Below are positions 33,489 to 48,200 of a stretch of DNA of 64,000 bases, in pieces (position 1 is the stretch's first letter; the number at the start of each line of letters is the position of its first letter). The notes beneath the pieces are model-generated. The model was not told the origin of the DNA. It searched no databases and saw only the letters and a program-made list of their open reading frames with translations. Source of the stretch: an uncultured Bacillota bacterium. Its GTDB lineage: Bacteria; Sysuimicrobiota; Sysuimicrobiia; Sysuimicrobiales; Segetimicrobiaceae. The stretch covers positions 416,001 to 480,000 of the forward strand of contig CAWDRG010000017.1 of NCBI GenBank assembly GCA_963804645.1, in the 5' to 3' direction. Made by a program: the position numbers and the translations under genes.

Positions 33489-33542
33489 GCTGAACACCTT
33501 CCGCGCCCGGAGAGGCGTTCCTCCGGCGCGGGCGGCGCGCGC

Positions 33543-33571
33543 TTGAGCGCACCTGAGGAAGATGATACCAT
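33543..33571. promoter_or_regulatory. Overlapping divergent promoters for tRNA-Leu and polA
   Basis: Plus strand TTGAGC-N17-TACCAT (also TGnTACCAT); the same bases read TGgTATCAT on the minus strand. Confidence 0.55.
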
Positions 33572-33590
33572 TAGGGTCGCCAACGACCGC

Positions 33591-33677
33591 GCCGGAGTGT
33601 CGGAACTGGCAGACGATCGCGACTCAAAATCGCGTGGGCTCACGCCCGTGGGGGTTCGAGTCCCTCCTCCGGCACCA
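33591..33677 (+). tRNA. tRNA-Leu(CAA)
   Basis: GCCGGAG..CTCCGGC stem, CGCGA-CT-CAA-AA-TCGCG arm, variable arm, GGTTCGAGTCC, CCA. Confidence 0.96.
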
Positions 33678-33703
33678 GACACCCCGCCGGCGCGCCCCGG
33701 CGG

Positions 33704-34414
33704 TTAGATCGCGGGAGCGGGACGGATCCCGATCGGCCGGACGCGTGCGCGGGAGTGCTGCCGCTGCTCCGGCGCCTCGATAAACCCGCAAATCTCCTCG
33801 TAGATCTGCTGAATCGGACGTTCCGCGTTCGCTTGAAGCAGGCGGCGGTCCGCGCGGTAGTACTCGACCATGGGGCCCGTGAGCTCCCGGAACACGCCGA
33901 TGCGGTGGCGAATGGTGTCGGCATCGTCGTCTTTGCGCTGCGCCAGGGGCGCGCCGTCCACATCGCAGCGGCCGCCGGCGCGCGGGGGCTGGTACTCCAG
34001 GTGGTAGGTCATCCCGCATCGCGAGCAGACGCGGCGCCCGGCAAGCCGCGTCAGCAGGACGTCATCCCGGATCGTGAACAGCACCGCCGCGTCGAGGCGC
34101 CGGCCCGCGCTCGCGAGCGAGGCGTCCAGTACCCGTGCCTGCTCGAGCGTCCGGGGGTATCCGTCCAAGATAAATCCGTCGCCGCAGTCTGGCTCGGCCA
34201 GGCGCGCGCGAACGATCTCGTCGACCAGGGCGTCGGGCACGAGGTCGCCCCGGCGCATGTATTCGGACGCGCGCTCGCCGAGCCCGGTCGCGTCGCGGAC
34301 GGCCTCGCGGAGCATGTCGCCTGTACAGATGTGCGGCAACCCGTGTCGAGCATGAAACAGCCCGGCCTGCGTACCCTTCCCGGCTCCCGGCGGCCCCGCA
34401 AACACGAAGTTCAC
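33704..34414 (-). CDS. adk: Adenylate kinase (zinc-lid type)
   Basis: GPPGAGKGTQ, TGDMLR, FILDGYPR, CSRC..CDVD lid, QRKDD; GGAGG RBS before GTG 34414. Confidence 0.92.
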   Translation of the reverse strand: MNFVFAGPPGAGKGTQAGLFHARHGLPHICTGDMLREAVRDATGLGERASEYMRRGDLVPDALVDEIVRARLAEPDCGDGFILDGYPRTLEQARVLDASLASAGRRLDAAVLFTIRDDVLLTRLAGRRVCSRCGMTYHLEYQPPRAGGRCDVDGAPLAQRKDDDADTIRHRIGVFRELTGPMVEYYRADRRLLQANAERPIQQIYEEICGFIEAPEQRQHSRARVRPIGIRPAPAI

Positions 34415-34594
34415 GTCACGACCTCCCCGAACGTGGCGTTGCGCGTGCCTGCGATCGTGAAGGGAGCGAGGAGAGTGCGAATCCACGATCTTCACACCGC
34501 ATTAACGTATACCCAGTTGGGGGGCGTTTCGTAACGAATGTCACGCACGCGACCGCACGGCATCGGCGCCGCGTCCGACCGTCTCCCGGCCGTG

Positions 34595-35752
34595 CTACCT
34601 GACGAAAAGCTCTCGAGGAAATTCGGTCAGCGGCTCGCATCCCCCGGGGGTCACGAGGACGGTTTCGCTCACGCCGACGCAGCCGACCCCGTAGTCGCGG
34701 AGGGCGGGAGGCATGTGAAAGACCATGCCCGGCTCCAGGCTGGTCGCGTCCCCCTTCCGGAGGCTGATGATGTGCCCCTCGTTCCAACCGGGCGGAAAGG
34801 CAAATCCCGCGGAATAGCCAGTGCGCTTTCGGAACGACTCGTACACGCCCGCCTCGACCATCACGGTCTGACACGCGCGGTCGACATCTTCGGCGGCCGC
34901 CCCGGGCCGCATCGAGGCGATCGCACGTTCGAGTCCTTCTCGGCACAGGCCGAACATGCGGCGCGTGTCGGCAGTGGGCTCGCCCAGGCTGACCGCGCGC
35001 ATCAGCGGCGCGATGTACCGGCCGCAGCACGCCGTCATCTCGAGCAGCACGGTGTCGTGCGGCTCAAGACGCCGCCGCTCGAACGTGGTATGCGGAACGC
35101 CGGCGCGGTAGCCGGACGTCACGATCGGATCGATCGGAAAGTACTCGGATCCGGCCCGGACCATCGCCGCCATCGCCGCGGCCGCGACGTCGTTCTCGGT
35201 GGCGCCGACGGCGCAGGCGTCGATCGCCGCGCGCATGCCGAGGGCGGTCCACGCGGCCGCCTGCCGCATGCGCGCCACCTCGCGGTCGGATTTCACCCGG
35301 CGCAGCCGCTCGACCGCGCCCGAGCCATCCGCGAGGTCGAAGCCTGCGAGCAGCTGACCGAGGCGGCGGCGGTTCGCCGCGTGCATCGCGGGCGCCGTCT
35401 CCTCGAGGGCGACGCCGCGCCGGTTCGCCGCACGGCGCGTCACTTCGTCGGCCAGCCGCTCCAGGGGATCCTCGTGATCGTCGTAGGTGACCACTTCGGT
35501 CCCCGCGGCGTAGAGCGCGGCGAGGTACGACTCCAGATACCGGACGAACAAGGTGGGCGACCCGCGGCGCGGGACGAGCAGCACCTGGAACGTCCGGCCG
35601 GCATACGTCTGATACCCGGTCAGGTAGAACACGCTCTCTTGCGCGAAGGCGAGAAACAGGTCCACCCCTCGACGCTCCAGCTCGGCCTGCAGCCGAGCGA
35701 GGCGGCCGGCGAACTCCTCCGGCGGAAACACGGGCGTGTGTGGAATCTGCAT
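34595..35752 (-). CDS. M24-family hydrolase, ectoine hydrolase (DoeA/EutD)/creatinase-like
   Basis: YLTGY, KSDRE, VPH, LLEMTACCGRYIAPLMR, RTGYS, WNEG, MVFHMPP, SETV; lacks the D-D-H-E metal ligands of prolidases. Confidence 0.8.
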   Translation of the reverse strand: MQIPHTPVFPPEEFAGRLARLQAELERRGVDLFLAFAQESVFYLTGYQTYAGRTFQVLLVPRRGSPTLFVRYLESYLAALYAAGTEVVTYDDHEDPLERLADEVTRRAANRRGVALEETAPAMHAANRRRLGQLLAGFDLADGSGAVERLRRVKSDREVARMRQAAAWTALGMRAAIDACAVGATENDVAAAAMAAMVRAGSEYFPIDPIVTSGYRAGVPHTTFERRRLEPHDTVLLEMTACCGRYIAPLMRAVSLGEPTADTRRMFGLCREGLERAIASMRPGAAAEDVDRACQTVMVEAGVYESFRKRTGYSAGFAFPPGWNEGHIISLRKGDATSLEPGMVFHMPPALRDYGVGCVGVSETVLVTPGGCEPLTEFPRELFVR

Positions 35753-35795
35753 GCGTGCGTCGCTCCCTTCCGGCTCGCGGCCGATCTCGACCGCG

Positions 35796-36650
35796 CTACT
35801 CCCGGGCCCCGGCGAGCGCGCCGCGCGGCCGCCACCGGAGCAGCCGCCGCTCCACCACGCCGAGGACGATGTCCATGACGACCACGATCAGCAGGAGCGC
35901 CACGATCGCCGCCATCGTCACGCTCACGTTGAGTTCGTTGGCGGCCTCGTTCACGAGATATCCGAGCCCGAGGTTCGCGGCGATGAACTCCCCGGTCACG
36001 GCCCCGACGAGCGCCTCCGGCACGGCGATCCGGAGCCCGGTCATCAGGTACGGCACGGTGCTCGGCAGCGCGATCTTCCAGACCACATCCGCCCGGCGAG
36101 CGCCCATCACGCGGACCACGTGGACGAGCTGCGGGCTCACCTGGTACAGCCCCGCCGCCATGTTCATGAAGACCACAAAGAACACGAACAGCGCCGCGAG
36201 CACGACCTTCGGCGCCAGCCCCAGGCCGAACCACATCACGAACAGCGGCGCGAGCGCGATCTTTGGGACCGAGTAGACCGCGATCAGAAACGGCCTGAGG
36301 ACGCGCTGGAGGGTCTCTTCAAACGCGACGACGAGCGCCACCGCGACGCCGAACACCGCCCCGATCGCGTAGCCGCTCAGGACCTCCGTGACGGTCTGCA
36401 CGAGGTTCGGCCACAGGCGGCCGGACACCACGAGCCCCCAGAACGCGCGCGCCACGCCGCCCGGATCACCGACGTACTGCCGCTCGCCGAACCGCCCGGC
36501 AGCCACCGCCCACCCGCCGAGCGCGAGGACCAGCACGAGGGCCCGGCCCACCGCAACCGCGGCACCCCACGCCACCTCGTGCCGCCGCGCCCGGCGCCAC
36601 ACCTCAAGGTGCAGGCGCTGCTCGCGCGACACCGGCGCCGGCCCGCTCAC
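35796..36650 (-). CDS. ABC permease (SsuC/TauC type)
   Basis: SVPKIALAPL..WFG, MGA, LPS, GEF..NLGLG. Confidence 0.9.
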   Translation of the reverse strand: MSGPAPVSREQRLHLEVWRRARRHEVAWGAAVAVGRALVLVLALGGWAVAAGRFGERQYVGDPGGVARAFWGLVVSGRLWPNLVQTVTEVLSGYAIGAVFGVAVALVVAFEETLQRVLRPFLIAVYSVPKIALAPLFVMWFGLGLAPKVVLAALFVFFVVFMNMAAGLYQVSPQLVHVVRVMGARRADVVWKIALPSTVPYLMTGLRIAVPEALVGAVTGEFIAANLGLGYLVNEAANELNVSVTMAAIVALLLIVVVMDIVLGVVERRLLRWRPRGALAGARE

Positions 36651-36663
36651 GCGGCGGAGCCCG

Positions 36664-38382
36664 TCACTCGACGTGCTCCGCGGCGGACGCCGCCCGCACC
36701 GGCGGCGCGGAGAGCCGACGTTCCTCGTCGGGATCGCGCTCGATCGACCGCATCGAGACGCGGCCCCGCTCGTACAGCACCGTCCGGACCCACGCGGGAT
36801 CCTGCGCAGGGAAATCGTCCCGGTAGTGTGCCGCCCGGCTTTCGGTTCGCGCGAGCGCGCTCGCCGCGATGGCCGCGCCGACCTCGCACAGATCCGCGAG
36901 CTCGATCGCGGCGACCAGATCGCCGACCGTCTCCTGGGGCAGCGCGGCGGCCTCCGCCCGGATCTCGGCGAGGTCCCGCTGCGCGACGCGAAGGCCCTCG
37001 GCGGTCCGCACGATGCCGATGCCGAGCCACATGCGGTCCCGCAGGCGCGCCAGCAGGGCGTCCATCGCGGGCGACGCGTCGGTCGCCTCGCCGCGGACGG
37101 CCGCGATCCGGCGCGCCCACCGGTCGGCGGCGCGCTCGTCGATCCGCCCCGCGGGGCGCCCGCGCTCGCCGGCGGCCGCGATGCCGGCCCGATGCCCCAT
37201 CACCTGCGTCTCGGGCACCGCGTTGCTGTTGAGGCGGTTGCCGCCGTGGGTCCCGCCGGCGTTCTCGCCGGCCGCGTACAGGCCCGGCGTCGCGCTCAGG
37301 CCCGCATCGTCGGTGAGCACCCCGCCCATGAAAAAGTGCGCCTCCGGCGCAATCACGAGCGGGATTTCCCGGTAGTTGATGCCGCGCGGCTCGAGCCGTT
37401 CGATCACTTTCGTGTTCTCGAGGCGGAACTGCTCGTCGGAGACCTGGGAGACGTCGAGCAGCACCCCACCGTCCACGCTCAGGCCGGCGCGGATCTGGTC
37501 GAAGATGCCGCGCGCCGACACATCGCGGGTGGCGGTCTCTTTCTTGACCGGATCGTACGCCTCCATAAACCGCTCGCCGCGGCTGTTGTAGAGACGGGCG
37601 CCCGACACGAACGTCGACGGCTGGATCGGGACGCGGCTGTTCCGGAACGGCCGGATGAGGCGCCAGGGGTAGAACTGGATGAACTCCATGTCGCGCAGCG
37701 GCGCGCCGGCCCGGACGGCGAGCGCGTAGCCGCCGCCGGTCACGTCCACGGGGTTGCTCGTCACGCTGAACAAGCGGCCCGCGCCGCCCGCGGCGAGGAC
37801 GACGGCCCGCGCGCGGATCAGGCACCCCCCGATGCGGTCCCGCCGCACGCCGATCGCCCCAACCACGCGGCCGTCGTCGAGCAGCAGCTCGACGATCAGG
37901 GTGTTCTCGAGCGGGTGCACCCCGGAGGCGAGCGCGGCCTCGCGCAGCGGCAGGGTCATGTCGGTGCCGCGATAGTGAATCGGCGCGAGCACGCGCGGGT
38001 GCCGGTGATCCCCGCTCGGGGACAGATAGTACTGGCCGTCGCGCACCCGGAACTGGGCCCCGAGCGCCATCAACTCTTTGAGCCGCGCGGGCGCCTCGTC
38101 GGCGAGCGCCCGCACGAGCGGCCGCTCGTTCACCCACCCGCCGCCGGCGATGGTGTCGGCGTAGTGCTGCGCGGCATCGTCTTCGGGGTCGAACTCCGCG
38201 GACGCCGCCGCGTAGCCCCCGGTGGTGTTGGCGGACGAGCCGCTCTGGCCGAGCTTGCGCTTCACCGCGATAATCACGTCCGCGCCTGCCTGCCGCGCGC
38301 TGAGGGCGGCCCGGAGCGCGGCGAGCCCGCCGCCGACGATGAGGACGTCGGTCTCGAACGTCTCGAACGTCTCGAACGTCAC
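36664..38382 (-). CDS. FAD-dependent oxidoreductase, NadB/SdhA/FrdA flavoprotein family
   Basis: GGGLAA, AAGGAG, DMEFIQFYP, TRDV, AHFFMGG, YAAGE, HGGNRL, RTESRAAHYRDDFP. Confidence 0.88.
   Translation of the reverse strand: MTFETFETFETDVLIVGGGLAALRAALSARQAGADVIIAVKRKLGQSGSSANTTGGYAAASAEFDPEDDAAQHYADTIAGGGWVNERPLVRALADEAPARLKELMALGAQFRVRDGQYYLSPSGDHRHPRVLAPIHYRGTDMTLPLREAALASGVHPLENTLIVELLLDDGRVVGAIGVRRDRIGGCLIRARAVVLAAGGAGRLFSVTSNPVDVTGGGYALAVRAGAPLRDMEFIQFYPWRLIRPFRNSRVPIQPSTFVSGARLYNSRGERFMEAYDPVKKETATRDVSARGIFDQIRAGLSVDGGVLLDVSQVSDEQFRLENTKVIERLEPRGINYREIPLVIAPEAHFFMGGVLTDDAGLSATPGLYAAGENAGGTHGGNRLNSNAVPETQVMGHRAGIAAAGERGRPAGRIDERAADRWARRIAAVRGEATDASPAMDALLARLRDRMWLGIGIVRTAEGLRVAQRDLAEIRAEAAALPQETVGDLVAAIELADLCEVGAAIAASALARTESRAAHYRDDFPAQDPAWVRTVLYERGRVSMRSIERDPDEERRLSAPPVRAASAAEHVE
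38351..38380. repeat. 9-bp tandem repeat (GTCTCGAAC)x3.3 at the flavoprotein 5' end
   Basis: Encodes TFE-TFE-TFE-T. Confidence 0.85.
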
Positions 38383-38407
38383 GGGCGCGGCGCCCGCTCG
38401 ACCGGCG

Positions 38408-39568
38408 TCACGGACGCTCGCCCACCACGTGCAGCACCCGCGGGAACTGCGTCAGGACGTCGCATCCCCCCTCCGTCACGAGCACCGTCTCGCTCCAGCC
38501 CAATCCGTAGCGGCGCGGCACGCGCAGCGCGGGCGGCATGTGAAACACCATCCCGGGGACGAGCGGCGTCGGGTCGTCGCGCCGCAGGCTGACGATGTGC
38601 CCTTCCCCCCAGTCCGGCGCGTAGCCGACCCCCACCGAATACCCGGTGCGCTTCCGGAAGTACGGCTCGTAGCCCGCGTCCTCGAGGACCGTCCGGCACG
38701 CCGCGTCGACGTCTCCGCTCGTCGCTCCGGGCCGGATCGCCGCGATCGCCGCGTCGAGCGACGCGATGATCGTCGCGGCCATCGCGTGCACCTCGCCGCG
38801 GACGGGCGCGATCGCGGCGCTGCGCATCAGCGGGCCGAAGTAGCGGCGCAGGCAGCCGCCCAGCTCGACGAGCACCGTATCCCCTGCCTCGAGCCGTCGG
38901 TGTCCGAACGTCAAATGGGCGACACCGGAGCGCCACCCCGACGTGACGATCGGGTCGCCCGCGAAGAAGTCGGACCCGGCGCCCAGCATCGCGCCGTAGG
39001 CCGCCGCGGCGACATCGTCCTCGGTCACCCCGGCCCGAATCGCGCCGAGGGCCGCGGCCATGCCCGCCTCGGTGACGCGGCACGCGCGCCGGATCAGCGC
39101 CACCTCGGACGCCGACTTGATCCGCCGCCCCGCCTCGACCATGCCGGACGCGTCGACGACGGCGCCGAGCCCGGCCCGCAGCCGGTCGACCGCCCCCGCG
39201 GCGACGAACCCGCCTTCCAGCTCGATGCCGACCGGGGCCCCGAGCCACCCGCGCCGGCGGAGCAGGCCGGTGAGCCGCTCGCCGGGGTCCTCCGCGTCGC
39301 CGAACGTCTCGAACTGATCGATCCAGCACGTCGTCTCGGCGACCGTGCGCTCCATCTCCCGGATCAACAGGACGACGGCGTCGGGACGCACGACCAAGGT
39401 CTGGAAGCTGCTGAACCCGATCGTCTCGTACCCGGTCAGGTAGCAGACGTTCTCGGGCGCGAACACCAGCAGGGTCTCGATCGCGCGGCGCGCCATGCGC
39501 GAGCGCAGCGCGTCCAATCTGGTCTGGTACTCGCCGACCGTGAAGGCCGGCACCCACTCACTCGTCAT
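38408..39568 (-). CDS. Second M24-family DoeA/creatinase-like hydrolase
   Basis: YLTGY, KSASE, VAH, LVELGGCLRRYFGPLMR, RTGYS, WGEG, MVFHMPP. Confidence 0.8.
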   Translation of the reverse strand: MTSEWVPAFTVGEYQTRLDALRSRMARRAIETLLVFAPENVCYLTGYETIGFSSFQTLVVRPDAVVLLIREMERTVAETTCWIDQFETFGDAEDPGERLTGLLRRRGWLGAPVGIELEGGFVAAGAVDRLRAGLGAVVDASGMVEAGRRIKSASEVALIRRACRVTEAGMAAALGAIRAGVTEDDVAAAAYGAMLGAGSDFFAGDPIVTSGWRSGVAHLTFGHRRLEAGDTVLVELGGCLRRYFGPLMRSAAIAPVRGEVHAMAATIIASLDAAIAAIRPGATSGDVDAACRTVLEDAGYEPYFRKRTGYSVGVGYAPDWGEGHIVSLRRDDPTPLVPGMVFHMPPALRVPRRYGLGWSETVLVTEGGCDVLTQFPRVLHVVGERP

Positions 39569-39590
39569 CGACGCCTCCTGGCGGAACGGC

Positions 39591-40466
39591 TCACCCGAGC
39601 GGGCTGCGCTCGCGGGGCGTCCAGCGCACCCACGCCCGCTCGACCGCCGACACCCCCGCGTTCATCAGGGTCACCACGATCAGCAGCCCGAAGATCGCGG
39701 CGAACACGTCGGCCGTCCGGTAGCGCGAACTCGCCGCGCTGATGAGGTAGCCGACACCGCGGTTGCTGCTGATGAACTCGCCGACGACGGCGCCGATCAG
39801 CGCGGCCGGCACGGTGATCCGGAGCGCGACGACGATGAACGGCGTCGCGCTCGGCAGCACGACCTTCCGAAAGACCGCGACCGGGCCGGCGCCCATCACC
39901 CGCACGACCTGGACCAGCCCGGGCGGCGCGGTCGCGAGGCCCGCGAGCGTGTTGAAGAACACGATGAAAAACACGAACACCGCGGCGAGCAGGATCTTCG
40001 GCAGGAGGCCGATGCCGAACCACAGGATCATGAGCGGCGCGAGCGCGATCTTGGGCGTCGCGTACGCGAGCAGGAGCAGCGGGCGCAGGACCGGCTCGCC
40101 ACCCGGGATCAGCCACGTGACGACCGCGGCCAGCAGGCCCGTGGACGCGCCCAGCGCGTATCCCGCCAGGGTCTCGGTGAGCGTGTACCGCAGATTGAAC
40201 CACAGGGTGCCGTCCCGGGCGATGCGGCCAAACGCCGAGGCGACGCTGACGGGATCGCTCAAAAACAGGTGGTCGACGAGCCGCCCCGAGGCGCCCCACC
40301 ACGCGGCGAGCAGCGCCGCGAGCAGCAGCACCTGCCAGGTCGCGACCGCGGCCGTCAGCCTCCGGTCCCGCCGGACGGCGTCGGCCGCCTCGCGCGCGAG
40401 AATCGCCTGTTCGCGCGGGTCGGCGCGGTCCGGGGCCGCGGGGCCCAGCGCCCGGCCGTTACTCAC
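39591..40466 (-). CDS. ABC permease (SsuC/TauC type)
   Basis: ATPKIALAPL..WFG, MGA, GEFISSNRGVG; GGAGG RBS before GTG 40466. Confidence 0.9.
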   Translation of the reverse strand: MSNGRALGPAAPDRADPREQAILAREAADAVRRDRRLTAAVATWQVLLLAALLAAWWGASGRLVDHLFLSDPVSVASAFGRIARDGTLWFNLRYTLTETLAGYALGASTGLLAAVVTWLIPGGEPVLRPLLLLAYATPKIALAPLMILWFGIGLLPKILLAAVFVFFIVFFNTLAGLATAPPGLVQVVRVMGAGPVAVFRKVVLPSATPFIVVALRITVPAALIGAVVGEFISSNRGVGYLISAASSRYRTADVFAAIFGLLIVVTLMNAGVSAVERAWVRWTPRERSPLG

Positions 40467-41337
40467 CGTCCGCCTCCCGCCCGCTGGCGATCTCGGCGCG
40501 CAGATCCGCCCAGATGGCGTCGTAGACCGGGGCAAACCCCGGGGCTTCGTGGATGTGAAAGACGTCCCGCGGCCGGGGAATCGCGACCTCGCGGACCTCC
40601 TTGATCGTCCCCGGGGCGCGCGTGAAGATGCCGATGCGGTCCGACAGCGCGATCGCCTCGACCAGATCGTGCGTCACGAAGACGACTGTGCGCCCGCTGC
40701 CCTGCCACAACCGCAGCAGCTCGTCCTGCAGCACGAGGCGCGTCTGTGCATCGAGCGGCCCGAACGGCTCGTCCATCAGGATCACGTTGACGCTGTCGTC
40801 GACGAGCGTGCGGACGATCGACACCCGCTTGCGCATGCCCCCGGACAGCTCGTGGGGATAGTGGTGTTCGAAGCCCCGCAGGCCGACCCGGTCGAGATAG
40901 GCGAGCGCCCGCGCCGTCCGCTCGGCGCGCCCGACGCCCTTGAGCTCGAGCGCGATCTCGACGTTCCCGAGCGTCGTGCGCCACGGCAGCAGGTTGTCGT
41001 CCTGCGTGATGTACCCGCCGCGGGTGTTGACGCCGCGAATCGGCTGCCCGTCCTGCAGCACCGCCCCGTCCGTCGGCGCCGTCAGGCCCGCGAACATGTT
41101 CAGCACGGTCGACTTGCCGCACCCCGACGGCCCGATCAGCGTCAGGAACTCGCCCCGCCGCACGGTCAGGTTCACGGCGCGCACCGCCGTCATCGCCCGG
41201 CGGCTGCGTCGGGTGCGCGAGACGAACACCTTGTAGACGTCGCGGGCCTCCAGGGCGACCGGCCCATCCGCCGACACCGCGCGCGCCTGTGGTCCTACCG
41301 TCGCCGCCGAAGGCTCCTCAGCGGCGCGGAGCCCCAT
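40459..41337 (-). CDS. ABC ATP-binding protein (SsuB/TauB type)
   Basis: GPSGCGKST, LLPWRT, LSGGMRKR, MDEPFG, VTHD. Confidence 0.93.
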   Translation of the reverse strand: MGLRAAEEPSAATVGPQARAVSADGPVALEARDVYKVFVSRTRRSRRAMTAVRAVNLTVRRGEFLTLIGPSGCGKSTVLNMFAGLTAPTDGAVLQDGQPIRGVNTRGGYITQDDNLLPWRTTLGNVEIALELKGVGRAERTARALAYLDRVGLRGFEHHYPHELSGGMRKRVSIVRTLVDDSVNVILMDEPFGPLDAQTRLVLQDELLRLWQGSGRTVVFVTHDLVEAIALSDRIGIFTRAPGTIKEVREVAIPRPRDVFHIHEAPGFAPVYDAIWADLRAEIASGREADGE

Positions 41338-42220
41338 CGAGCCGCTCGCGCAGAAGACGCATGATGACCTGCCACTCGTTGTACCCGGTCCGGCGCGGCG
41401 CGGTGGCGGCCTGCCCGCGGGCCCAGATGACCTTCCGGCCGAGCTGCTCCGCCGCGGCGAAGTCGACGCTGCCCGGAGGCGAGCACAGGTCGATGATCAC
41501 GACGTCGTCGGCCGTGCGGGCGAGCAGTTCGCGCGTCAGCACCAACCCGGATGAGGAGCTGACGATCAGCGGAAACCGGTCGATCGTCCCGGGAAGCTCC
41601 GACAGCGGGAGCGCGGTCATCCCCATCGCCCACGCGCGCGCGAGCTGGGAGGGATTGCGGGCCGCGAGCGTCACCCGGGCCTGCAGCCCGAGAAACGCCT
41701 GGGCGACGCTGAGACCGACGCGGCCGAGCCCGAGACAGAGCATCGGCAGGCCGAGGATCGTCTCCTCGGTGTTCTCGATCGCCACCTTCACCGCGCCCTC
41801 GGCGGTCGGCACGGCGTGCAGAATCGCGAGCGGATCGTCGTCCCCGTATCCGACCGGAGTCACCGGGGTGCCCTTCGCCCACGCTTCGATCTGCGGGTTC
41901 GCCCGCCCCATGAACATCAAGGCGCCCGGGGCGGCGCCGCGCAGCACTTCGGTCGTGGTAAACAGTTTCTCCTTTGCGAACGGGGCATACAGGCTGTGGT
42001 CCGTGCCGAGTCCGGGGATCGGGGCCGAGATCAACCTGGCGCCCGCGACGGCCTGCGCCAGCGAGGGCGACGCGGGCGCACCCGCCGCCTGGTCGGCCCC
42101 GGGCGCGGTCCCGTAGTGCTGCACCGACGCGCCCGACGCGCGCGCCTGGCGCATGTGCTCGAGCGCCCGCCGGTCGCCCCCGACGACCGCGACCGTCCAC
42201 CCCGACAGATCCACCGCCAT
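41318..42220 (-). CDS. Dipicolinate synthase subunit A (DpaA/SpoVFA)-like NAD-binding protein
   Basis: AVVGGDRR, PTAEG, TEETILG, LGLGRVG, AARN..LAR, IDLCSPPGSVDF, APRRTG; colinear with DpaA over the full length. Confidence 0.82.
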   Translation of the reverse strand: MAVDLSGWTVAVVGGDRRALEHMRQARASGASVQHYGTAPGADQAAGAPASPSLAQAVAGARLISAPIPGLGTDHSLYAPFAKEKLFTTTEVLRGAAPGALMFMGRANPQIEAWAKGTPVTPVGYGDDDPLAILHAVPTAEGAVKVAIENTEETILGLPMLCLGLGRVGLSVAQAFLGLQARVTLAARNPSQLARAWAMGMTALPLSELPGTIDRFPLIVSSSSGLVLTRELLARTADDVVIIDLCSPPGSVDFAAAEQLGRKVIWARGQAATAPRRTGYNEWQVIMRLLRERLDGAPRR

Positions 42221-42292
42221 CCTGTCCCTCCCTCTGACGCGGCGGCAGCGGGATCCCGGAGGCTGCCGGCCGCCCCGCGGGCTAGGCGCCCG

Positions 42293-43321
42293 CTACTTGA
42301 CGAAGCTGTTGGTCCACAGGACGCCCTCGGCGGTCGACGCCGCGACGGGCTGCCCGATCGTCTTGAAGATGTCGAGGTACCGCTGGACGCCCGCCTGCGA
42401 GAATCTCCCGTCGGGACTGATCGCCGGGAGGGTTGCGTCGAGTCCGACCGCGAGGCTGGCGGCCGGGGTATCGGGGAAGTACTTCTGTCCGAGAATCTGC
42501 AGCGCCTCGGTTTTGTTCGCGCGAATCCACGCCGTGGCCGCGGTCACCGAACGGGCGAACGCGGTCAGCGCCGGCCCGTTCTGCCGCGCGTACGCGGCCG
42601 AGGTGAAGAACCCGTCGTAGGTCGTGTTCGTGAATTCCGGCACGTCCCCCGCCGTGTCGCGGATGATGATCTGGCCCACGCCCTCCTGCTCCAGCGTCTG
42701 CGGGAGCGGCGGCGAGAGCAGGAACGCGTCGATCCGGCCGGCCCGCAGCGCGGCCGCCAGCCCGGCGACCCCGCCGACCTGCACCAGATTCGCGTCACGA
42801 TCGGGGTTGAGACCCGCTTTGATCAGGAAGTACCGCGCAAACACGTCCGTCGGCGCGCCGGGTGCCGTGATTCCGATGTTCAAGCCCTTGAGCGCCGCGT
42901 ACCGCCTCGGCAGCGACGAGAAGCGGCTGACGCCGGTCTTCTGGATGACGCTGTTTCGAACGATGAGGTCGAGCGTCACGCGCGTGACCAGGTTGTAGAA
43001 CAAGATCAGCTGCTTCCCCTGTGCCTGCACGTTGGCGATGCCCAGCGGGTCGAGATCGGACAGCTGGGCGTCGCCCGACAGCACCGTCGCCGGCCCGAGC
43101 GCTCCGCTGTTGATCTCCTGGAAGCTAAAATCGACCCCGTTTTGGGCGAAGAAGCCCTTCTCCTGCGCGATGAAAATCGGCGCGATGTACAGGACCCGAA
43201 ACCCCGTCTGCTTGATCTTGAATCGGGGCGCCTGCGCCAGACCGGTCGCGGGCGCGAAGGCCACCGACAGCAGCACCAGCAGCGCGAGTACCGTCCGGAT
43301 CGTTCGGCTCGAGGCTCGCAT
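42293..43321 (-). CDS. ABC substrate-binding protein (SsuA/NMT1 type)
   Basis: Signal peptide, YIAPIFIAQEKGFF, LKGLNIGIT, AALRAGRIDA; GAGGAGG RBS. Confidence 0.9.
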   Translation of the reverse strand: MRASSRTIRTVLALLVLLSVAFAPATGLAQAPRFKIKQTGFRVLYIAPIFIAQEKGFFAQNGVDFSFQEINSGALGPATVLSGDAQLSDLDPLGIANVQAQGKQLILFYNLVTRVTLDLIVRNSVIQKTGVSRFSSLPRRYAALKGLNIGITAPGAPTDVFARYFLIKAGLNPDRDANLVQVGGVAGLAAALRAGRIDAFLLSPPLPQTLEQEGVGQIIIRDTAGDVPEFTNTTYDGFFTSAAYARQNGPALTAFARSVTAATAWIRANKTEALQILGQKYFPDTPAASLAVGLDATLPAISPDGRFSQAGVQRYLDIFKTIGQPVAASTAEGVLWTNSFVK

Positions 43322-43451
43322 CGTCCCTCCTCGTGATTCCGCGCGCGCGAAACCGCGCGCGCCGTGCGGGATGTGGGAGGATCAGTACGCCGCCCGCGCA
43401 GCGCATTCCTTCACGGCGCGGCCGCACGGTCGCGATCCGGTGCGCTCGTGC

Positions 43452-44276
43452 CTACTCGGGAAGGTCCTCGGTCGGAGTCGAGATTGCCCGGTACGCATCG
43501 GGGCGCCGGTCTCGAAACAGCGGGAATCGCTGGCGGGCTCGGATCACGTCCTGCCGGTCGATCACCGCGGTGATGATCTGCTCTTCGGTGCCGCTCGCCT
43601 GCACCAGGATCTTCCCGTCCGGGCCGATCACCATGCTCTTGCCGGACATCCGCCACCCGCCCTCCTGGCCGACGTGGTTGCACGCGGCCAGAAACACGCC
43701 GTTCTCCAATGCCCGGGTCGTGAGAAAGTTCTCCCACGGATCGCCGATCGGCGTCGCGTACGGGGCGAGAATGAGCTCCGCCCCATTCAGCGCGAGGCAC
43801 CGGCACGATTCGGGGAAGAGATTGTCGTAGCACGTCGACACGCCGGCCCGCCACTCGCCGATGCGGAACGTCGGGAACGACGACCCGCCCCGGAAGTAGA
43901 TCTTCTCGAGGCTGAGCAGCGCCGCCGGATGTACCTTGCGGTACTTGCCCGCCACCGCGCCCTCCGGGTCAATCAACATCGCGGTGTCGTAGTAGAGACC
44001 CGGCGCGGCCATCTCGAAGATGGTCGACAGGATCCACAGGCGGTGGCGGCGCGCCAGCGCCTTGATGCGCGTTTGCGTGACGCCGTCGTCGGGCTCCGCG
44101 TAGTCCATGTACTTCGCGTCCCGGTATTGCGGGAAGTACTCGTGGTTGAAAAACTCCGGCAGCACGATGAGCTCCGCCCCGTCGGCGGCGGCGTGATCGA
44201 CGAACGCGGCGGCACGCTCGACGTTCGCGTCCCGGGCGGCCCTCTGGCTGGTCATCTGCACGAGCGCGATCCGCAT
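43452..44276 (-). CDS. Carbon-nitrogen hydrolase (nitrilase superfamily)
   Basis: E-K-C triad: VLPEFF, YRKVH, TCYD..FPE. Confidence 0.92.
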   Translation of the reverse strand: MRIALVQMTSQRAARDANVERAAAFVDHAAADGAELIVLPEFFNHEYFPQYRDAKYMDYAEPDDGVTQTRIKALARRHRLWILSTIFEMAAPGLYYDTAMLIDPEGAVAGKYRKVHPAALLSLEKIYFRGGSSFPTFRIGEWRAGVSTCYDNLFPESCRCLALNGAELILAPYATPIGDPWENFLTTRALENGVFLAACNHVGQEGGWRMSGKSMVIGPDGKILVQASGTEEQIITAVIDRQDVIRARQRFPLFRDRRPDAYRAISTPTEDLPE

Positions 44277-44312
44277 GAACGCCGTCCGATCTCCGACGGT
44301 CCGCTCGGCCGG

Positions 44313-44555
44313 TCAGCCGTGGGCCGCGGCGAGCGCCGCCCGCACGCCCGAGATCGTCACGTGCGACCGGACGAGTTCGACCCCGTCCAGCGTGAGCACC
44401 GGAATCACCGTCCCGTAGCGCGCGACCAGCTCGGGGTCGCGGGTGATATCGATGTGCTCGATTTCGTAGCCGAACTCGGGCTGCAGGTGGTCGGCGACCC
44501 GCTGCGCTTTCTCACATAAACAGCAGTCGGGTTTCCCGTAGATCCGCAGCGTCAC
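44313..44555 (-). CDS. Glutaredoxin-like protein (DUF836)
   Basis: IYGKPDCCLC, IDI..DPEL..RYG..IPV; GTGA overlap. Confidence 0.85.
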   Translation of the reverse strand: MTLRIYGKPDCCLCEKAQRVADHLQPEFGYEIEHIDITRDPELVARYGTVIPVLTLDGVELVRSHVTISGVRAALAAAHG

Positions 44556-45277
44556 GGCGCCACCGCGCGCGCGAAGTGCATCGCCGGCAGCTCGCGCGCC
44601 GCCGGCACGGTCACGCTCGGGCGCGACGTCACCGTGATCCGCAGCCCGAGGCCGCGGAGTCCATCCACGACGCCGCCGCGGATGCTCATGGCCCCGGTCA
44701 GGGCCTCGGGGTCGCCGATCGCCACGATGTCGTACGGGGCCGCCAGCCGCTGCCCCCCCGCGATGATCGTGCCCCCGACCTGGCTCAGGCCGGTGGTCGC
44801 GACGACGCGGTACCCGCTCACCGCGATCGCCTCGGCGCCGGCCGCCCACAGCTCGTTGGCAATGCTGGCCACGTCGACGTACTGGACGACCGCGGGTGCC
44901 GCGCCCCCGGCCGGCGTCGACCCGTCGTCGACGGTGACGCGCACGCCGGGCCCGGTAAGGGCGACCGCCCCAGCCGCGATCCGGAGCCGCTCCAGCTCCT
45001 CCGCGAGCGCGCGATCCGAACTGCGCCGCTGCGTCGCCGCGGTCTCGAACGCGGTCAGCCGCGTGGTCAGCGACGCGACCTGCGCTTCAAGGCCCCGCCG
45101 CGCCTCGCGCTCCTGCCCGAGCATCGTGGCGAGCGCGTACACGTTGCGCGTGGGGACGCCTTCCTGGCCCGACAGCGCCCGTCCCGCCCGCAGCTGCACG
45201 ACGACGAGAAACCCAAGCGCCATCAAGACCACGGCGAAGAGCACCTGCCGCCAGGCCGTGCTACTCCTCCCAGACAT
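44552..45277 (-). CDS. DUF881-family protein
   Basis: N-terminal TM and coiled coil, AG..ALTGPGV.VTVDD, ANELWAAGAEAIAV, PYDIVAIGDP. Confidence 0.88.
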   Translation of the reverse strand: MSGRSSTAWRQVLFAVVLMALGFLVVVQLRAGRALSGQEGVPTRNVYALATMLGQEREARRGLEAQVASLTTRLTAFETAATQRRSSDRALAEELERLRIAAGAVALTGPGVRVTVDDGSTPAGGAAPAVVQYVDVASIANELWAAGAEAIAVSGYRVVATTGLSQVGGTIIAGGQRLAAPYDIVAIGDPEALTGAMSIRGGVVDGLRGLGLRITVTSRPSVTVPAARELPAMHFARAVAP

Positions 45278-48200
45278 TCCCCTCGCCGAAGAGCTGCTCG
45301 AGCTCCTGTTGCAGATCCTCGTCGTCGCGCAACCGGGACTGCACCGGGATGACGTGCTCGCCGTCGTCCGTGACGACGTGCGCGCAGACCTGCCGTTCGC
45401 CCGGGTGCGCCGCGAGGTACTCGCAGAGCTGCTCGATCTCCTCCCGCGTGGTCACGCGCACCCGCAGCACGCGCCGCCCGGCATGGGCCGCCTCGGCGGG
45501 TTCAGGCGGTGCGGGCCGCACCGCCGTCGCGGTCGCCGCCGTGCGCGCGGCGCCGCCTCCGTTGCCGTTGGACGCGCCGGCGCGCCCGGGCCCCCGGGCG
45601 GCGCGGGGCGCCCGCGGGGGCACCTCGAGATGCGCCGCCTCCTCCGGTGTCGCCGGGAGCGGGATCACCTCGTCGCAGAGCAGCTTCACGCCCTGCTCCT
45701 CGATGTCGAGCCTGCCCCGCAGCAGTACCACGGTGTCCCGCTTGAGCGCCAACCCATGCTGCTCGTACGCCCGGGGAAACACCAGGACCTCCACGCTGCC
45801 CGTGAGATCTTCCAGCGTCAGGAACGCCATCGCCGAGCCGGCCCGCGTGATGCTGCGCTTCACCGAGCCGACCAGCCCGCCGACGAGGACGTCCTGGCGA
45901 TCTCGGAGCTCCGCGAGCTGTCCGATCGTGGCGGTGACCTTCGCGTCGAGCACCGGCTGCCACCGGCGAAGCGGGTGGTCGGAGATGTAGAGGCCCAGCA
46001 TCTCCCGCTCCATCGTGAGGCGCTCCTCGGAGCTGAACTCCTGTGCCGTCGCATCGGGGCCGGCCGCGAGCGGCACCGCGCTCCCGAGGTCGAACAGACC
46101 GGTCTGCCCCTGCGACCGCGCGCGCTGGCTCCGCTGGGCCTGCTCGACGGTCTCGTCGAGCGTCTGCAGCATCTGCGCGCGCGTCGTCCCGAGCGAATCG
46201 CAGGCCCCCGCCTTCACCAGGCTGGCGAGCACCCGCTGGTTGACCTGGCGGGTGTCCACCCGGGCGCACAGGTCCGCGAGGCTCGAGAACGGCCCGCCCG
46301 ACTCCCGTGCCGCGATGATCACCTCCACCGCGCCCACCCCGACGTTCCGGATCGCGGCGAGCCCGAACCGAATCGCCCCGCCGACCACGGTGAACGATGC
46401 GTGGCTCTCATTCACGTCGGGGGGCAGGATCTCGAGCCCCATCCGCTGGCACTCGGCGACGGCCTGCGCGATCCGCTCCATGTCGCCGGCGGTACTGCTC
46501 AGGACCGCGGTCATGTACTCGGCCGAGTAATGCGCCTTGAGGTAGGCGGTGTAGTAGGCGATCAGCCCGTAGCAGGCGGCGTGCGCGCGGTTGAAGCCGT
46601 ACCGTGCGAACGGCTCGAACTGTTCGAAGATCTGGTCGACGATCTTGGCCGGCACGCGGTTCTTGCGCGCGCCCTCGACGAACTTCTCGCGCTGCGCGAG
46701 CAGGCGGTCCTTGATCTTCTTGCGGATCGCGTAGCACAGGACGTCGGCCTCGGCCATCGTGTAGCCCGCGACCGCCTGCGCGACCGTCATGATGTCTTCC
46801 TGGTACACCATCACCCCGTAGGTCTCTTTGAGCACCGGCTCGAGCAGGGGGTGGAGATACGTCACCGGCTCCTGGCCGTGCTTGCGCCGGATGTACGCGG
46901 GAATGTTCGCCATCGGTCCCGGCCGGAAGAGCGCCACCATGGCCATCACGTCTTCGATCCGGTCGGGCTTGAGCTCCCGCAGCCAGCGCGTCATCCCCCG
47001 GCCCTCCAGCTGGAAGATGCCGGTGGTGTCGCCGGACCCCAGAAGCGCATAGGTCGGCTGATCGTCGAGCGGCAGGCGCTGGAGGTCAATCTCCGCTCCC
47101 CGCGTCTCGCGGATCATCTTGATCGCCTGGTCGAGGATGGTCAAGTTCGTGAGGCCGAGAAAGTCCATCTTCAAGAGGCCGAGGCGGGCTACGCTGTTCA
47201 TGTCGTACTGCGTCATCAACAGATCGCCCTTGGTGGCCCGCTGCAGCGGCACCTGGTCGGTCAGGGGGTCGCGCGAGATGATCACGCCCGCGGCGTGGGT
47301 GCTGGCGTGCCGGGCCACGCCCTCGAGCTTCTGCGCCATGTCGAGGAGCTGGCGGATCTGCGGGCTGGCCTCGGCGGCCCCCCGGAGCTCGGGCTCGGCG
47401 GCGAGCGCGTCCTTCAGCGTCACGTTCGCGCCGGGCACGAGTTTCGCGATGCGGTCGACGTCGCCGTACGGCAGGCTCATCACCCGCCCGACATCGCGGA
47501 TCGCCGCACGCGCCCCCATCGTCCCGAACGTGATGATCTGCGCCACCCGGTCCGCGCCGTACTTGTCGACCACGTACTTGATGACCTCGTCGCGCCGGCT
47601 GTCCATGAAGTCCACGTCGATATCCGGCATCGTGTACCGCTCGAGGTTCAGGAACCGGTCGAACGGGAGACGATACGCGATCGGATCGACATCGGTCACC
47701 CCGCACGAGTACAACACAAGGCTGCCGGCCGCCGACCCGCGGACCGTGGTCAGGATGCCGCTGCGCCGCGCGAAGTTGACGAAGTCCTGCACGATCAGAA
47801 AGTAGGCCGCGTAGCCCGTCTTCGTGATCACGCCGAGCTCGTACTCGAGCCGCTCGCGGCGCGCCGGCGTCATCTCCCCGTAGATCCGGACGATTCCCCG
47901 TTCGCAGAGCCCTCGAAGATAGGAATCCGGCGTCTCCCCCTTGGGGACGTCGACGTGCGGCAACTTGATCGTATCGGTGTCGAGCGTGACGGTGCACCGC
48001 TCGGCGATCACCAGCGTGTTGCGGAGCGCCTCGGGCAGATCGGGGAAGCGTGCCGCCATCTCTTCGGGGCTCTTCAGGTAGAAATCCGGCGTGTCGTTCA
48101 TCCGGGGCTTATCGTGCTGGTCGAGGGTCATCCCCATCTGGATGCACATCAGGGCGTCCTGCGCGTCGGCCTCGTCCCGGGTCACGTAGTGGACGTCGTT

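Follow-up and report, generated by a model that had tools for sequence, protein, structure and literature searches.

Within a 64,000-nucleotide (nt) stretch of DNA from an uncultured bacterium of the Segetimicrobiaceae (Sysuimicrobiota; assembly GCA_963804645.1, contig CAWDRG010000017.1, positions 416,001 to 480,000; hereafter the window) we describe a cassette of eight genes, which codes for a substrate-binding protein, a DpaA-like oxidoreductase, the ATPase and two permeases of an ATP-binding cassette (ABC) transporter, two M24-type hydrolases (M24a and M24b) related to the ectoine hydrolase DoeA, and a flavoprotein of the NadB/SdhA superfamily. This cassette is a conserved operon that occurs with the same gene order in unrelated lineages. 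The core is most likely a horizontally mobile operon for the uptake and catabolism of a small mono-carboxylate rich in nitrogen, with a cyclic amidine or ureide as the most likely substrate and, in terms of substrate type, most likely a hydropyrimidine- or hydantoin-carboxylate, such as an ectoine-like or (dihydro)orotate-like compound or 5-carboxymethylhydantoin.

A conserved eight-gene core and its distribution

We scanned the species-representative genomes with the DpaA-like protein (14 loci) and metagenomes with an alignment of its orthologues (46 further loci), and mapped onto all of these loci by tblastn the nine proteins of the window that a first-pass annotation, made from the letters and translated open reading frames (ORFs) alone, had placed in a single unit. 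We excluded L039, L041 and L075, which come from the window's own population (99-100 % identical), along with L072, which is the same record as L009. The 51 non-redundant loci that were kept have a DpaA-like orthologue with an identity of 55 % or more, and each count takes only those with enough flanking DNA. The binding-protein gene lies directly upstream of the DpaA-like gene in 28/31 evaluable loci, the ATPase gene lies directly downstream of it in 34/35, and a permease gene follows the ATPase in 26/26. A flavoprotein gene is found at most 8 kb away in 12 of 14 evaluable loci, and at least one DoeA-type M24 gene is present in seven of the eight loci that are fully evaluable. The second permease gene is likewise syntenic in related loci, either before or after the flavoprotein gene. 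As this synteny of the core recurs in dozens of loci from other lineages, the arrangement is far beyond chance, and the co-occurrence in other genomes on which the first-pass annotation had staked its proposal is borne out by these counts.

In the window itself, the nine ORFs are all found between 34595 and 44276 on the minus strand (ORF list with Pfam and NCBIfam searches), in the order originally given and with family assignments that agree with their Pfam and NCBIfam matches (Table 1). The spacings among the eight core genes are -20, -8, 22, 25, 13, 43 and 72 nt. The start of the ATPase gene runs 20 nt into the stop of the DpaA-like gene, and the real start of the first permease gene is likely the GTG at 40466, by which it would overlap the ATPase stop by 8 nt.

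The proposal of a nine-gene unit stands for the tight and syntenic core but not for the ninth gene, which codes for a C-N hydrolase of the nitrilase superfamily. A homologue of this hydrolase occurs in none of the 24 loci outside the window's own population that have at least 2.3 kb of DNA upstream of the DpaA-like gene; hence, the conserved unit comprises eight genes. The C-N hydrolase accompanies the cassette only in the own-population contigs L039 and L041. It is separated from the binding-protein gene by 130 nt and from the upstream glutaredoxin-like gene by 36 nt. The 130-nt spacer folds no better than its shuffled versions (z = -0.19), and thus gives no evidence of a terminator or attenuator between the C-N hydrolase gene and the core. 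The best NCBIfam match of the protein is the N-carbamoylputrescine amidase AguB, below the cut-off (166 vs 410), and among proteins of solved structure its best relatives are PH0642 (a nitrilase/beta-ureidopropionase entry) and Nit2. An 83 % identical orthologue is present in the same-genus genome G006, which is devoid of the cassette. The C-N hydrolase gene is thus a lineage-specific neighbour, whose membership of the operon is doubtful. The G006 orthologue (L038; G006:C190, 8499-10539) has a divergently oriented Creatininase-family (PF02633) gene as its neighbour, and the same spot adjoins a Dpp-type ABC system interrupted by an IS110-family transposase.

Around the transporter and the DpaA-like gene, the related loci show several distinct architectures. 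That of the window (A1: binding protein, DpaA-like, ATPase, permease, M24a, flavoprotein, permease, M24b) is shared by L001, with L008 and L059 as variants in which the second permease precedes the flavoprotein. Architecture A2 (L044, L068 and L005) has an isochorismatase-family gene between the first permease and M24a and a second binding protein at its end. Architecture C (L002 and L042) is like A2 and has an aspartate-aminotransferase-like gene with a GntR regulator in the flavoprotein position. In architecture B (12 loci, L003 to L076) an operon of DHDPS-like, M24c, M20-A and Ldh_2 genes is divergent from the transporter/DpaA-like operon. The latter then consists of binding protein, DpaA-like, ATPase, permease, flavoprotein, permease and M20-B genes, sometimes followed by an aspartate aminotransferase.

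By record title or source name, the carriers belong to Candidatus Sysuimicrobiota (Geohabitans), Alphaproteobacteria/Hyphomicrobiales, Armatimonadota/Armatimonadetes and Vicinamibacteria, alongside soil and peat metagenome contigs. The sequencing runs that share at least half of the words are peat metagenome DNA runs, with no RNA run listed among them. A plasmid search with the DpaA-like protein recovered only paralogues of 28-34 % identity, and no cultured carrier of the orthologous cassette was found. The DpaA-like gene is absent from all six same-genus genomes, and a search of 40 relatives recovered two orthologues (61-62 %) and two paralogues (40-42 %). In the same-genus genome G002, the interval between polA and the glutaredoxin-like gene is filled by an unrelated Dpp-type ABC system, an S15 peptidase, and GGDEF and HD-GYP-like proteins, because of which this spot looks variable and island-like. 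Together, the rarity in relatives and the differing interval in G002 indicate that the cassette is an accessory, laterally mobile unit in a variable region beside a tRNA gene.

The window has about 70 % G+C, and the flanks of the cassette are of a housekeeping type, with polA, a tRNA gene and an adenylate kinase gene on one side and the glutaredoxin-like gene, a DUF881 gene and dnaE on the other. The tRNA gene lies between polA and the adenylate kinase gene, which abuts the cassette. With this gene included, the genome has three PF00406 matches, of which the canonical adk is apparently that at C17:370699-371253, next to a methionine-aminopeptidase-like M24 match. A scan for sigma-70 promoters returned no sites, and the terminator-like matches fall within genes.

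Table 1. Genes of the cassette, its C-N hydrolase neighbour and the adjoining flank, with positions in the window
Gene	Position	Strand	Matches and remarks
C-N hydrolase	43452-44276	-	PF00795, 196 bits
Substrate-binding protein	42293-43321	-	Pfam NMT1_2, 89.6 bits; first gene of conserved core
DpaA-like NAD(P)-binding oxidoreductase	41318-42220	-	DpaA_N, 66 bits
ABC ATPase	40459-41337	-	ABC_tran, 102 bits
ABC permease 1	39591-40535 (as listed ORF)	-	BPD_transp_1, 83.6 bits
M24a (M24 no. 1)	38408-39568	-	Creatinase_N + Peptidase_M24
Flavoprotein	36664-38382	-	FAD_binding_2, 228 bits, + Succ_DH_flav_C
ABC permease 2	35796-36650	-	BPD_transp_1, 114 bits
M24b (M24 no. 2)	34595-35752	-	Creatinase_N + Peptidase_M24
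Adenylate kinase	33704-34495	-	PF00406
tRNA	33591-33674	+	47.7 bits

Enzymes and transporter of the cassette

M24a and M24b are 46 % identical and belong to separate clades, with a third clade, M24c, in loci of the alphaproteobacterial type; orthologues of M24b with 65-73 % identity are found in L001, L008 and L059. The best solved and named relative of both is the ectoine hydrolase DoeA (6twk; 153 bits for M24a and 141 bits for M24b), followed by prolidases and creatinase, of which the creatinase 1chm matches M24a with just 60 bits. Where the Pyrococcus prolidase 1pv9 has the metal ligands D, D, H, E, E, M24a, M24b and DoeA alike have E, P, Y, P, E, and across clades a, b and c the pattern E, P/A, Y, P/x, E is seen in 24/24 aligned sequences, with the last Glu alone being retained. 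Given this replacement of the peptidase metal ligands, the three clades are metal-free hydrolases of the DoeA/creatinase type, the known members of which cleave amidine or guanidine C-N bonds. The scores against the DoeA equivalogs are 272.8 (M24a) and 253.2 (M24b) vs a cut-off of 575 for ectoine_DoeA_2 (NF038259), and 189.2 and 166.0 vs 613 for TIGR02993. A genome-wide match search found no protein that reaches a DoeA equivalog cut-off, and PF04952, the DoeB/EutE type, has no match in this 96.8 %-complete genome, nor among the window genes scanned. Hence, the canonical ectoine genes are missing, as had been claimed for the window, and for the DoeA and DoeB/EutE types this extends to the genome.

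An obligate M24a/M24b heterodimer was considered and set aside, as architectures A2, B and C have a single M24. The genome as such has 23 matches to M24a (27 to the DoeA model), mainly Creatinase_N+M24 paralogues of 25-34 % identity spread over many contigs. The family is thus unusually expanded here, and only the window pair sits in a DpaA/flavoprotein cassette. Among cultured bacteria, the plasmid pAt1D132a of Agrobacterium fabrum (L106) and a plasmid of Pantoea vagans (L108) code for M24s that are 53-54 % identical to M24c, have the same non-metal site and bear the annotation 'Xaa-Pro peptidase family protein'. Their operon comprises a GntR regulator, an amino-acid ABC system, M20, MR/MLE, M24, (DHDPS-family), PuuD-like, VOC and GhrA genes and a D-amino-acid transaminase. 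Being in cultured hosts, these genes offer a tractable way into the enzyme family.

The flavoprotein, a soluble FAD protein, is 32 % identical to Escherichia coli NadB and 29.5 % identical to FrdA, and all its curated scores lie below the cut-off (TfrA, 409 vs 718; NadB TIGR00551, 312.1 vs 452.75; TIGR01812, 321.8 vs 567.3). It retains NadB Q242, R290, H351, R386 and S389, while E121, H244, T259, E260 and R263 (E. coli numbering) are replaced by S, Y, Q, P and F, respectively. The substituted residues lie in the motifs 'QFYPWR' and 'PIQPSTF' and are constant in the window protein and 14 orthologues (15/15), save for one orthologue with S at the E260 position. Further, a Ser takes the place of the covalent flavin adenine dinucleotide (FAD)-binding His of FrdA, and no iron-sulphur (Fe-S) subunit (SdhB/FrdB/TfrB) was detected among the neighbouring window genes scanned with Pfam. 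With E121, H244, T259, E260, R263, R290, H351 and R386 in the functional roles that they have in NadB, the carboxylate clamp and catalytic base would be retained, and the site for the second carboxylate and free amino group would have turned into an aromatic pocket. A pocket remodelled in this way might suit a mono-carboxylate whose distal group is planar or cationic. The earlier label of a NadB/SdhA-like flavoprotein is thus right as to the superfamily but not as to a NadB-like substrate pocket.

A search of 1.84 billion cluster representatives with the flavoprotein, with the pocket residues tallied in the best 150, found the Y, Q, P and F of the window protein in 26 and the canonical H, T, E and R in seven. 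The radiation to which the flavoprotein belongs is therefore very diverse. Most of the nearest soluble NadB/Sdh-like 'FAD-binding proteins' among these 150 keep the Arg/His/Arg triad, along with dozens of four-residue combinations at the distal positions, which suggests a large group of flavoenzymes with functions that are as yet unexplored. A look-up in the ESM Atlas returned generic 'FAD-binding / L-aspartate oxidase / TfrA / MJ0033' clusters only. At the start of the ORF (~38350-38382, minus strand) a nine-base direct repeat occurs three times, reading TFE-TFE-TFE before the FAD-binding GGG motif; accordingly, translation may in truth start a few codons further on, and strains could differ in this repeat.

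The DpaA-like protein, single-copy in the genome, aligns over its full length (residues 5-292) to the DpaA structures 3d4o and 2rir and has the motifs GGDxR, PTAEG, GLGRVG and PG..DF in common with them. Its scores stay below both equivalogs (PRK08306, 211.5 vs 261; TIGR02853, 183.9 vs 319.65). Its likeness in sequence marks it as a dipicolinate synthase subunit A paralogue. A DpaB partner is not present next to it among the window genes scanned, and the two PF02441 (DpaB-type) genes that a search of the genome detected lie elsewhere, one on contig C15 and the other about 270 kb away on C17. The idea that the flavoprotein and the DpaA-like protein form an obligate two-component enzyme is weakened by L002 and L042, which have the DpaA-like gene without the flavoprotein. 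A complex prediction for the pair returned 'no answer' with a score of zero and is used neither way.

The transporter combines NMT1_2, ABC_tran and two BPD_transp_1 domains in one operon, which identifies it as an importer of the NitT/TauT type. The binding protein has a hydrophobic, signal-peptide-like N-terminus; it scores 42 against SsuA_fam (cut-off 163.5), and its best relative of solved structure is the uncharacterised exported protein 3qsl. The best NCBIfam matches of the ATPase are taurine and nitrate ABC ATPases, and permease 1 is SsuC/TauC-like, both below cut-off. None of the transporter proteins reaches the substrate-specific equivalogs (SsuA, TauB, SsuC).

The genes that accompany the cassette in related loci offer further clues. 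In 12 loci M20-A adjoins M24c; it passes NF009527 and, with 256-273 vs 204, TIGR01879 (hydantoinase/carbamoylase family amidase), and M20-B passes the ArgE/DapE deacylase model. An isochorismatase with RutB and BiuH as its best matches is found inside the operon in five loci, an AtzE/GatA-like amidase is encoded upstream in L001, and L007 and L008 have an Amidohydro_1 enzyme. At least five unrelated families thus occupy the amidohydrolase slot across the related loci, and for four of them the best matches are enzymes of ureido or N-carbamoyl hydrolysis, with M20-A alone above a curated threshold. Of the 13 type-B loci in which the upstream region can be seen, 12 have DHDPS-like genes, with L003 as the exception; such genes are also present in L005, L042 and L043, and Ldh_2 genes are found in 10 loci. 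L052 has an additional aspartate-aminotransferase-like gene (553 vs a cut-off of 617), and L002 and L005 have GntR/FCD regulators, a family typical of carboxylate sensing.

Candidate substrates and rival readings

We propose that the operon takes up a carboxylated cyclic amidine or ureide, opens its ring or de-amidinates it, removes an N-carbamoyl or N-acyl group and carries out two redox steps on it, an account to which we would give an even chance. First, the NMT1-type binding protein and the NitT/TauT-type ABC system, the families of which are plain from their matches, would import the ligand. Second, one or two of the metal-free M24s would attack the amidine or ureide carbon, upon which the ring opens and an N-carbamoyl or N-acyl amino acid is left; this reaction is proposed on the basis of the observed type of active site. 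Third, a replaceable amidohydrolase would strip off the N-carbamoyl or N-acyl group, as is suggested by the gene-for-gene replacement in the slot. Here this might be the neighbouring C-N hydrolase, and elsewhere the carbamoylase-family M20, the RutB-like isochorismatase, the amidase or the Amidohydro_1 enzyme. Fourth, the FAD enzyme, with the catalytic Arg and His/Arg carboxylate clamp of NadB/Frd and an aromatic distal pocket, and the DpaA-like NAD(P) enzyme would perform two redox steps at the carbon beside the remaining carboxylate. These might take place either on the ring before its opening, in a reductive-pyrimidine-like manner, or on the freed amino acid or cyclic imine; we infer the order and direction of the steps, like the substrate class, from the observed families, active-site types, synteny and replaceability of the amidohydrolase. 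The probable product, an aspartate-like amino or oxo acid, would then enter transamination. The aspartate-aminotransferase-like gene in the flavoprotein position of L002 and L042 and the additional one in L052 count in favour of the scheme.

Import, ring or C-N redox, ring opening and de-amidation had already been put forward as a route in the first-pass annotation, and in its general form this route fits the replaceable amidohydrolases of the related loci. As to the substrate, we prefer hydropyrimidine-4-carboxylates (ectoine-like, dihydroorotate, orotate) over hydantoin carboxylates, and these over N-amidino or N-carbamoyl imino acids, which weakly narrows the earlier list of ectoine-, pipecolate-, pyridine- or pyrimidine-carboxylate-like compounds. 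In its boldest form the heterocycle proposal would be that of a widespread pathway for a common nitrogen-rich ring of the orotate/dihydroorotate, hydantoin-carboxylate or ectoine type, in which the metal-free M24 acts as the ring-opening cyclic amidohydrolase, the flavoprotein with its altered pocket acts as a new dehydrogenase of heterocycles or N-substituted amino acids, and the DpaA paralogue has a role, the first of its kind, other than the synthesis of spore dipicolinate. We put this forward only tentatively.

Several observations weigh against the scheme. Both M24s score below half of either DoeA equivalog cut-off. The flavoprotein was not seen in L002 and L042, nor an M24 in L004. Most of the best matches of the accessory hydrolases are below curated cut-offs, and their families also include amidases that do not act on carbamoyl groups. 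The A1 architecture, including the window, is without a conserved amidohydrolase: the carbamoylase-model pass linked to the cassette is that of the type-B M20-A, and the sole candidate in the window is the non-conserved C-N hydrolase. Further, the scheme has no need of the DHDPS-like, Ldh_2 and ArgE/DapE-type M20 genes of the type-B loci, families that speak rather for a chemistry of cyclic imines or N-acyl amino acids. N-substituted amino acids, and not heterocycles, are likewise suggested by the plasmid clusters of Agrobacterium and Pantoea. Lastly, an Rfam scan of 33500-45500 (E up to 1) recovered the tRNA only and no riboswitch, and thus gives no direct evidence of a ligand.

It is these accessory families that lend weight to an alternative in which the operon degrades a cyclic imino acid with an N-substituent, or else a compound derived from a D-amino acid or peptide (proline-, hydroxyproline-, pipecolate- or diaminopimelate-like). 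The M24 and M20 enzymes would then strip off N-substituents, the flavoprotein would form a cyclic imine or 2-oxo acid, and the DpaA-like, Ldh_2 and DHDPS-like enzymes would process that product. The prevalence of DHDPS-like and Ldh_2 genes counts for it, as the DHDPS-family, Ldh_2-family and DpaA enzymes each have members that act on delta-1-imine-2-carboxylates, as do the MR/MLE, M20, DHDPS-family, GhrA and D-amino-acid transaminase genes of the Agrobacterium/Pantoea clusters with M24c relatives, and the aminotransferase that stands in for the flavoprotein in L002 and L042. However, the M24s are devoid of the metal site required for peptide or N-acyl hydrolysis by a prolidase mechanism, the window-type architecture has no DHDPS-like, Ldh_2 or M20 genes, and the binding protein is of the NMT1 type rather than an amino-acid or peptide type. 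We regard this alternative as unlikely.

A similarly low probability attaches to an operon for linear guanidino or amidino acids, in which creatinase-like M24s would split urea off an N-amidino amino acid (creatine, guanidinoacetate or N-amidino-imino-acid-like) and the resulting amino acid would be oxidised. The Creatinase_N + M24 architecture and creatinase-like metal-free site of both M24s are consistent with it, as are the Creatininase-family gene that adjoins the C-N hydrolase orthologue in G006 and the association of NitT/TauT-type transporters with guanidine uptake. Yet the likeness to creatinase (60 bits) is far weaker than that to DoeA (153 bits), no urease or urea carboxylase genes were seen in the loci scanned, and the release of urea would leave the recurrent carbamoylase-type hydrolases without a role.

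The closeness of both M24s to DoeA, including the same non-metal site, raises the alternative of a route for ectoine or 5-hydroxyectoine itself, with M24a/b as the hydrolases and with substitutes for DoeB/EutE (an unrelated amidohydrolase), for DoeD (the flavoprotein or aminotransferase) and for DoeC/EutC (the DpaA-like protein). To our knowledge, NMT1-type proteins are not among the known ectoine binders, which counts against it. So do the M24 scores relative to the DoeA equivalogs, and no enuR, ehu, ueh or tea genes were found among the window genes scanned. The recurrent carbamoylase-family and RutB/BiuH-like hydrolases also fit an N-carbamoyl intermediate better than an N-acetyl one. On the other side, an ArgE/DapE-type deacylase is present in type-B loci, and the succession of hydrolase, deacylase, amine removal and dehydrogenase maps one-to-one on the Doe pathway as set out in PMC8739950. 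In that same paper the juxtaposition of eutD and eutE serves as the operational definition of ectoine clusters, but no eutE/doeB-type gene is present in the window or the genome. Such a route therefore seems rather improbable.

Very unlikely, in our view, is a biosynthetic or salvage cassette of dipicolinate/diaminopimelate chemistry (DpaA-, DapA-, DapE- and NadB-like), for example for the reduction and salvage of spore dipicolinate. The full-length similarity and motifs shared with authentic DpaA, and the DapA-like and ArgE/DapE-type genes alongside it in type-B loci, speak for such a cassette. Against it, DpaB is not adjacent, all scores lie under the equivalog cut-offs, the importer, the two or more amidine-type hydrolases and the carbamoylases would be without a role, and reduction of an aromatic pyridine by NAD(P)H or FAD is energetically unfavourable. 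That there is no functional unit at all, with the enzymes as mere neighbours of an ABC transporter, is scarcely credible, given that the enzyme and transporter genes are interleaved with overlaps or gaps of at most 72 nt, in an order held across phyla.

Relation to known systems

We found no paper on the gene combination of this cassette, with thin full-text coverage of subscription journals, and to this extent the earlier statement that no described pathway has it agrees with the literature. Nevertheless, its parts can be set against several known systems. With ectoine/hydroxyectoine catabolism it shares M24s that are nearest to DoeA/EutD, with their non-canonical E, P, Y, P, E site, and the logic of importer, ring hydrolase, deacylase, amine removal and dehydrogenase. 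It differs from it in being devoid of an EutE/DoeB-type gene, EnuR and an ectoine-type transporter, and in having an NMT1-type binding protein, a NadB/Sdh-like flavoprotein, a DpaA-like enzyme and carbamoylase-type accessory hydrolases. With the hydantoinase-carbamoylase and reductive pyrimidine (PydABC-type) systems it would have in common a ring dehydrogenase/reductase, a cyclic C-N hydrolase and an N-carbamoyl amidohydrolase; in type-B loci, M20-A passes the hydantoinase/carbamoylase family model. This succession of dehydrogenase, cyclic amidohydrolase and carbamoyl hydrolase is described as a 'reaction module' of purine and pyrimidine pathways in PMC4016543. In contrast to these systems, a metal-free M24 would open the ring in place of an Amidohydro_1 cyclic amidohydrolase, the redox enzymes of the cassette are Sdh/NadB-like and DpaA-like rather than DHODH/DPD-like, and a carbamoylase is not conserved in the window architecture.

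The flavoprotein resembles NadB and the Sdh/Frd/TfrA (archaeal) proteins in its two-domain architecture, an identity of about 30 %, the catalytic Arg and the His/Arg carboxylate clamp, and departs from them in being without E121, the H244/T259/E260/R263 set, the covalent-FAD His and a gene for an Fe-S/TfrB partner. Similarly, the DpaA-like protein shares full-length similarity and motifs with DpaA of the DpaA/DpaB pair of endospore formers, but its gene is sub-cut-off, has no adjacent DpaB and is set among the transporter genes of a catabolic-type operon, in lineages that are not known to form spores. With creatinase, the M24s share the Creatinase_N + M24 fold and a metal-free site, but they are much closer to DoeA, and no sarcosine-oxidising genes are present.

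A more distant parallel is a family of paralogous DpsA clusters on plasmids of Aminobacter, Phyllobacterium and Shinella and in metagenome-assembled genomes (MAGs) of Fervidifonticultor/Geohabitans, of which we found no description in the literature. Here, too, a DpaA-like gene (34-45 % identical) is found beside M24, amidohydrolase, isochorismatase, GntR and NMT1-type ABC genes. However, the M24 of the MAG copies (L012-L014) keeps all five of D, D, H, E, E, and the one aligned plasmid M24 (Aminobacter) departs from these at three of the five metal positions. The clusters also have no Sdh/NadB-like flavoprotein and instead show an octopine-dehydrogenase-family gene along with enolase-superfamily and cytosine-deaminase-like genes. 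In L012-L014, L015 (Aminobacter sp. MSH1 pAM01, 140540-165400) and L016 (Phyllobacterium plasmid) the octopine/nopaline-dehydrogenase-family gene overlaps DpsA, and these clusters also hold genes for a 4-OT-like tautomerase, an amidase and RidA, with malate synthase G and a D-amino-acid dehydrogenase as additions in the Aminobacter cluster.

Thus, the cassette comes nearest in its workings to ectoine, hydantoin or reductive-pyrimidine catabolism but lies outside the canonical ectoine, NadB, Sdh/Frd and DpaAB systems, and is most likely a binding-protein-dependent catabolic operon for a nitrogenous small molecule that has been put together from unusual enzyme subfamilies. That it recurs in several phyla and in contigs from soil and peat metagenomes implies that it may represent a real route of organic-nitrogen turnover in these environments. 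Further, with the canonical substrate residues kept in only seven of the 150 best representatives, a single solved flavoprotein would open up many others. If the substrate were found, a function would be available for three large families that are now mis-named: the DpaA-like proteins, called 'dipicolinate synthase subunit A' in non-sporulating bacteria; the M24s, called 'Xaa-Pro peptidase family protein' despite the loss of their metal site; and the flavoproteins, called 'L-aspartate oxidase' or 'FAD-binding protein'.

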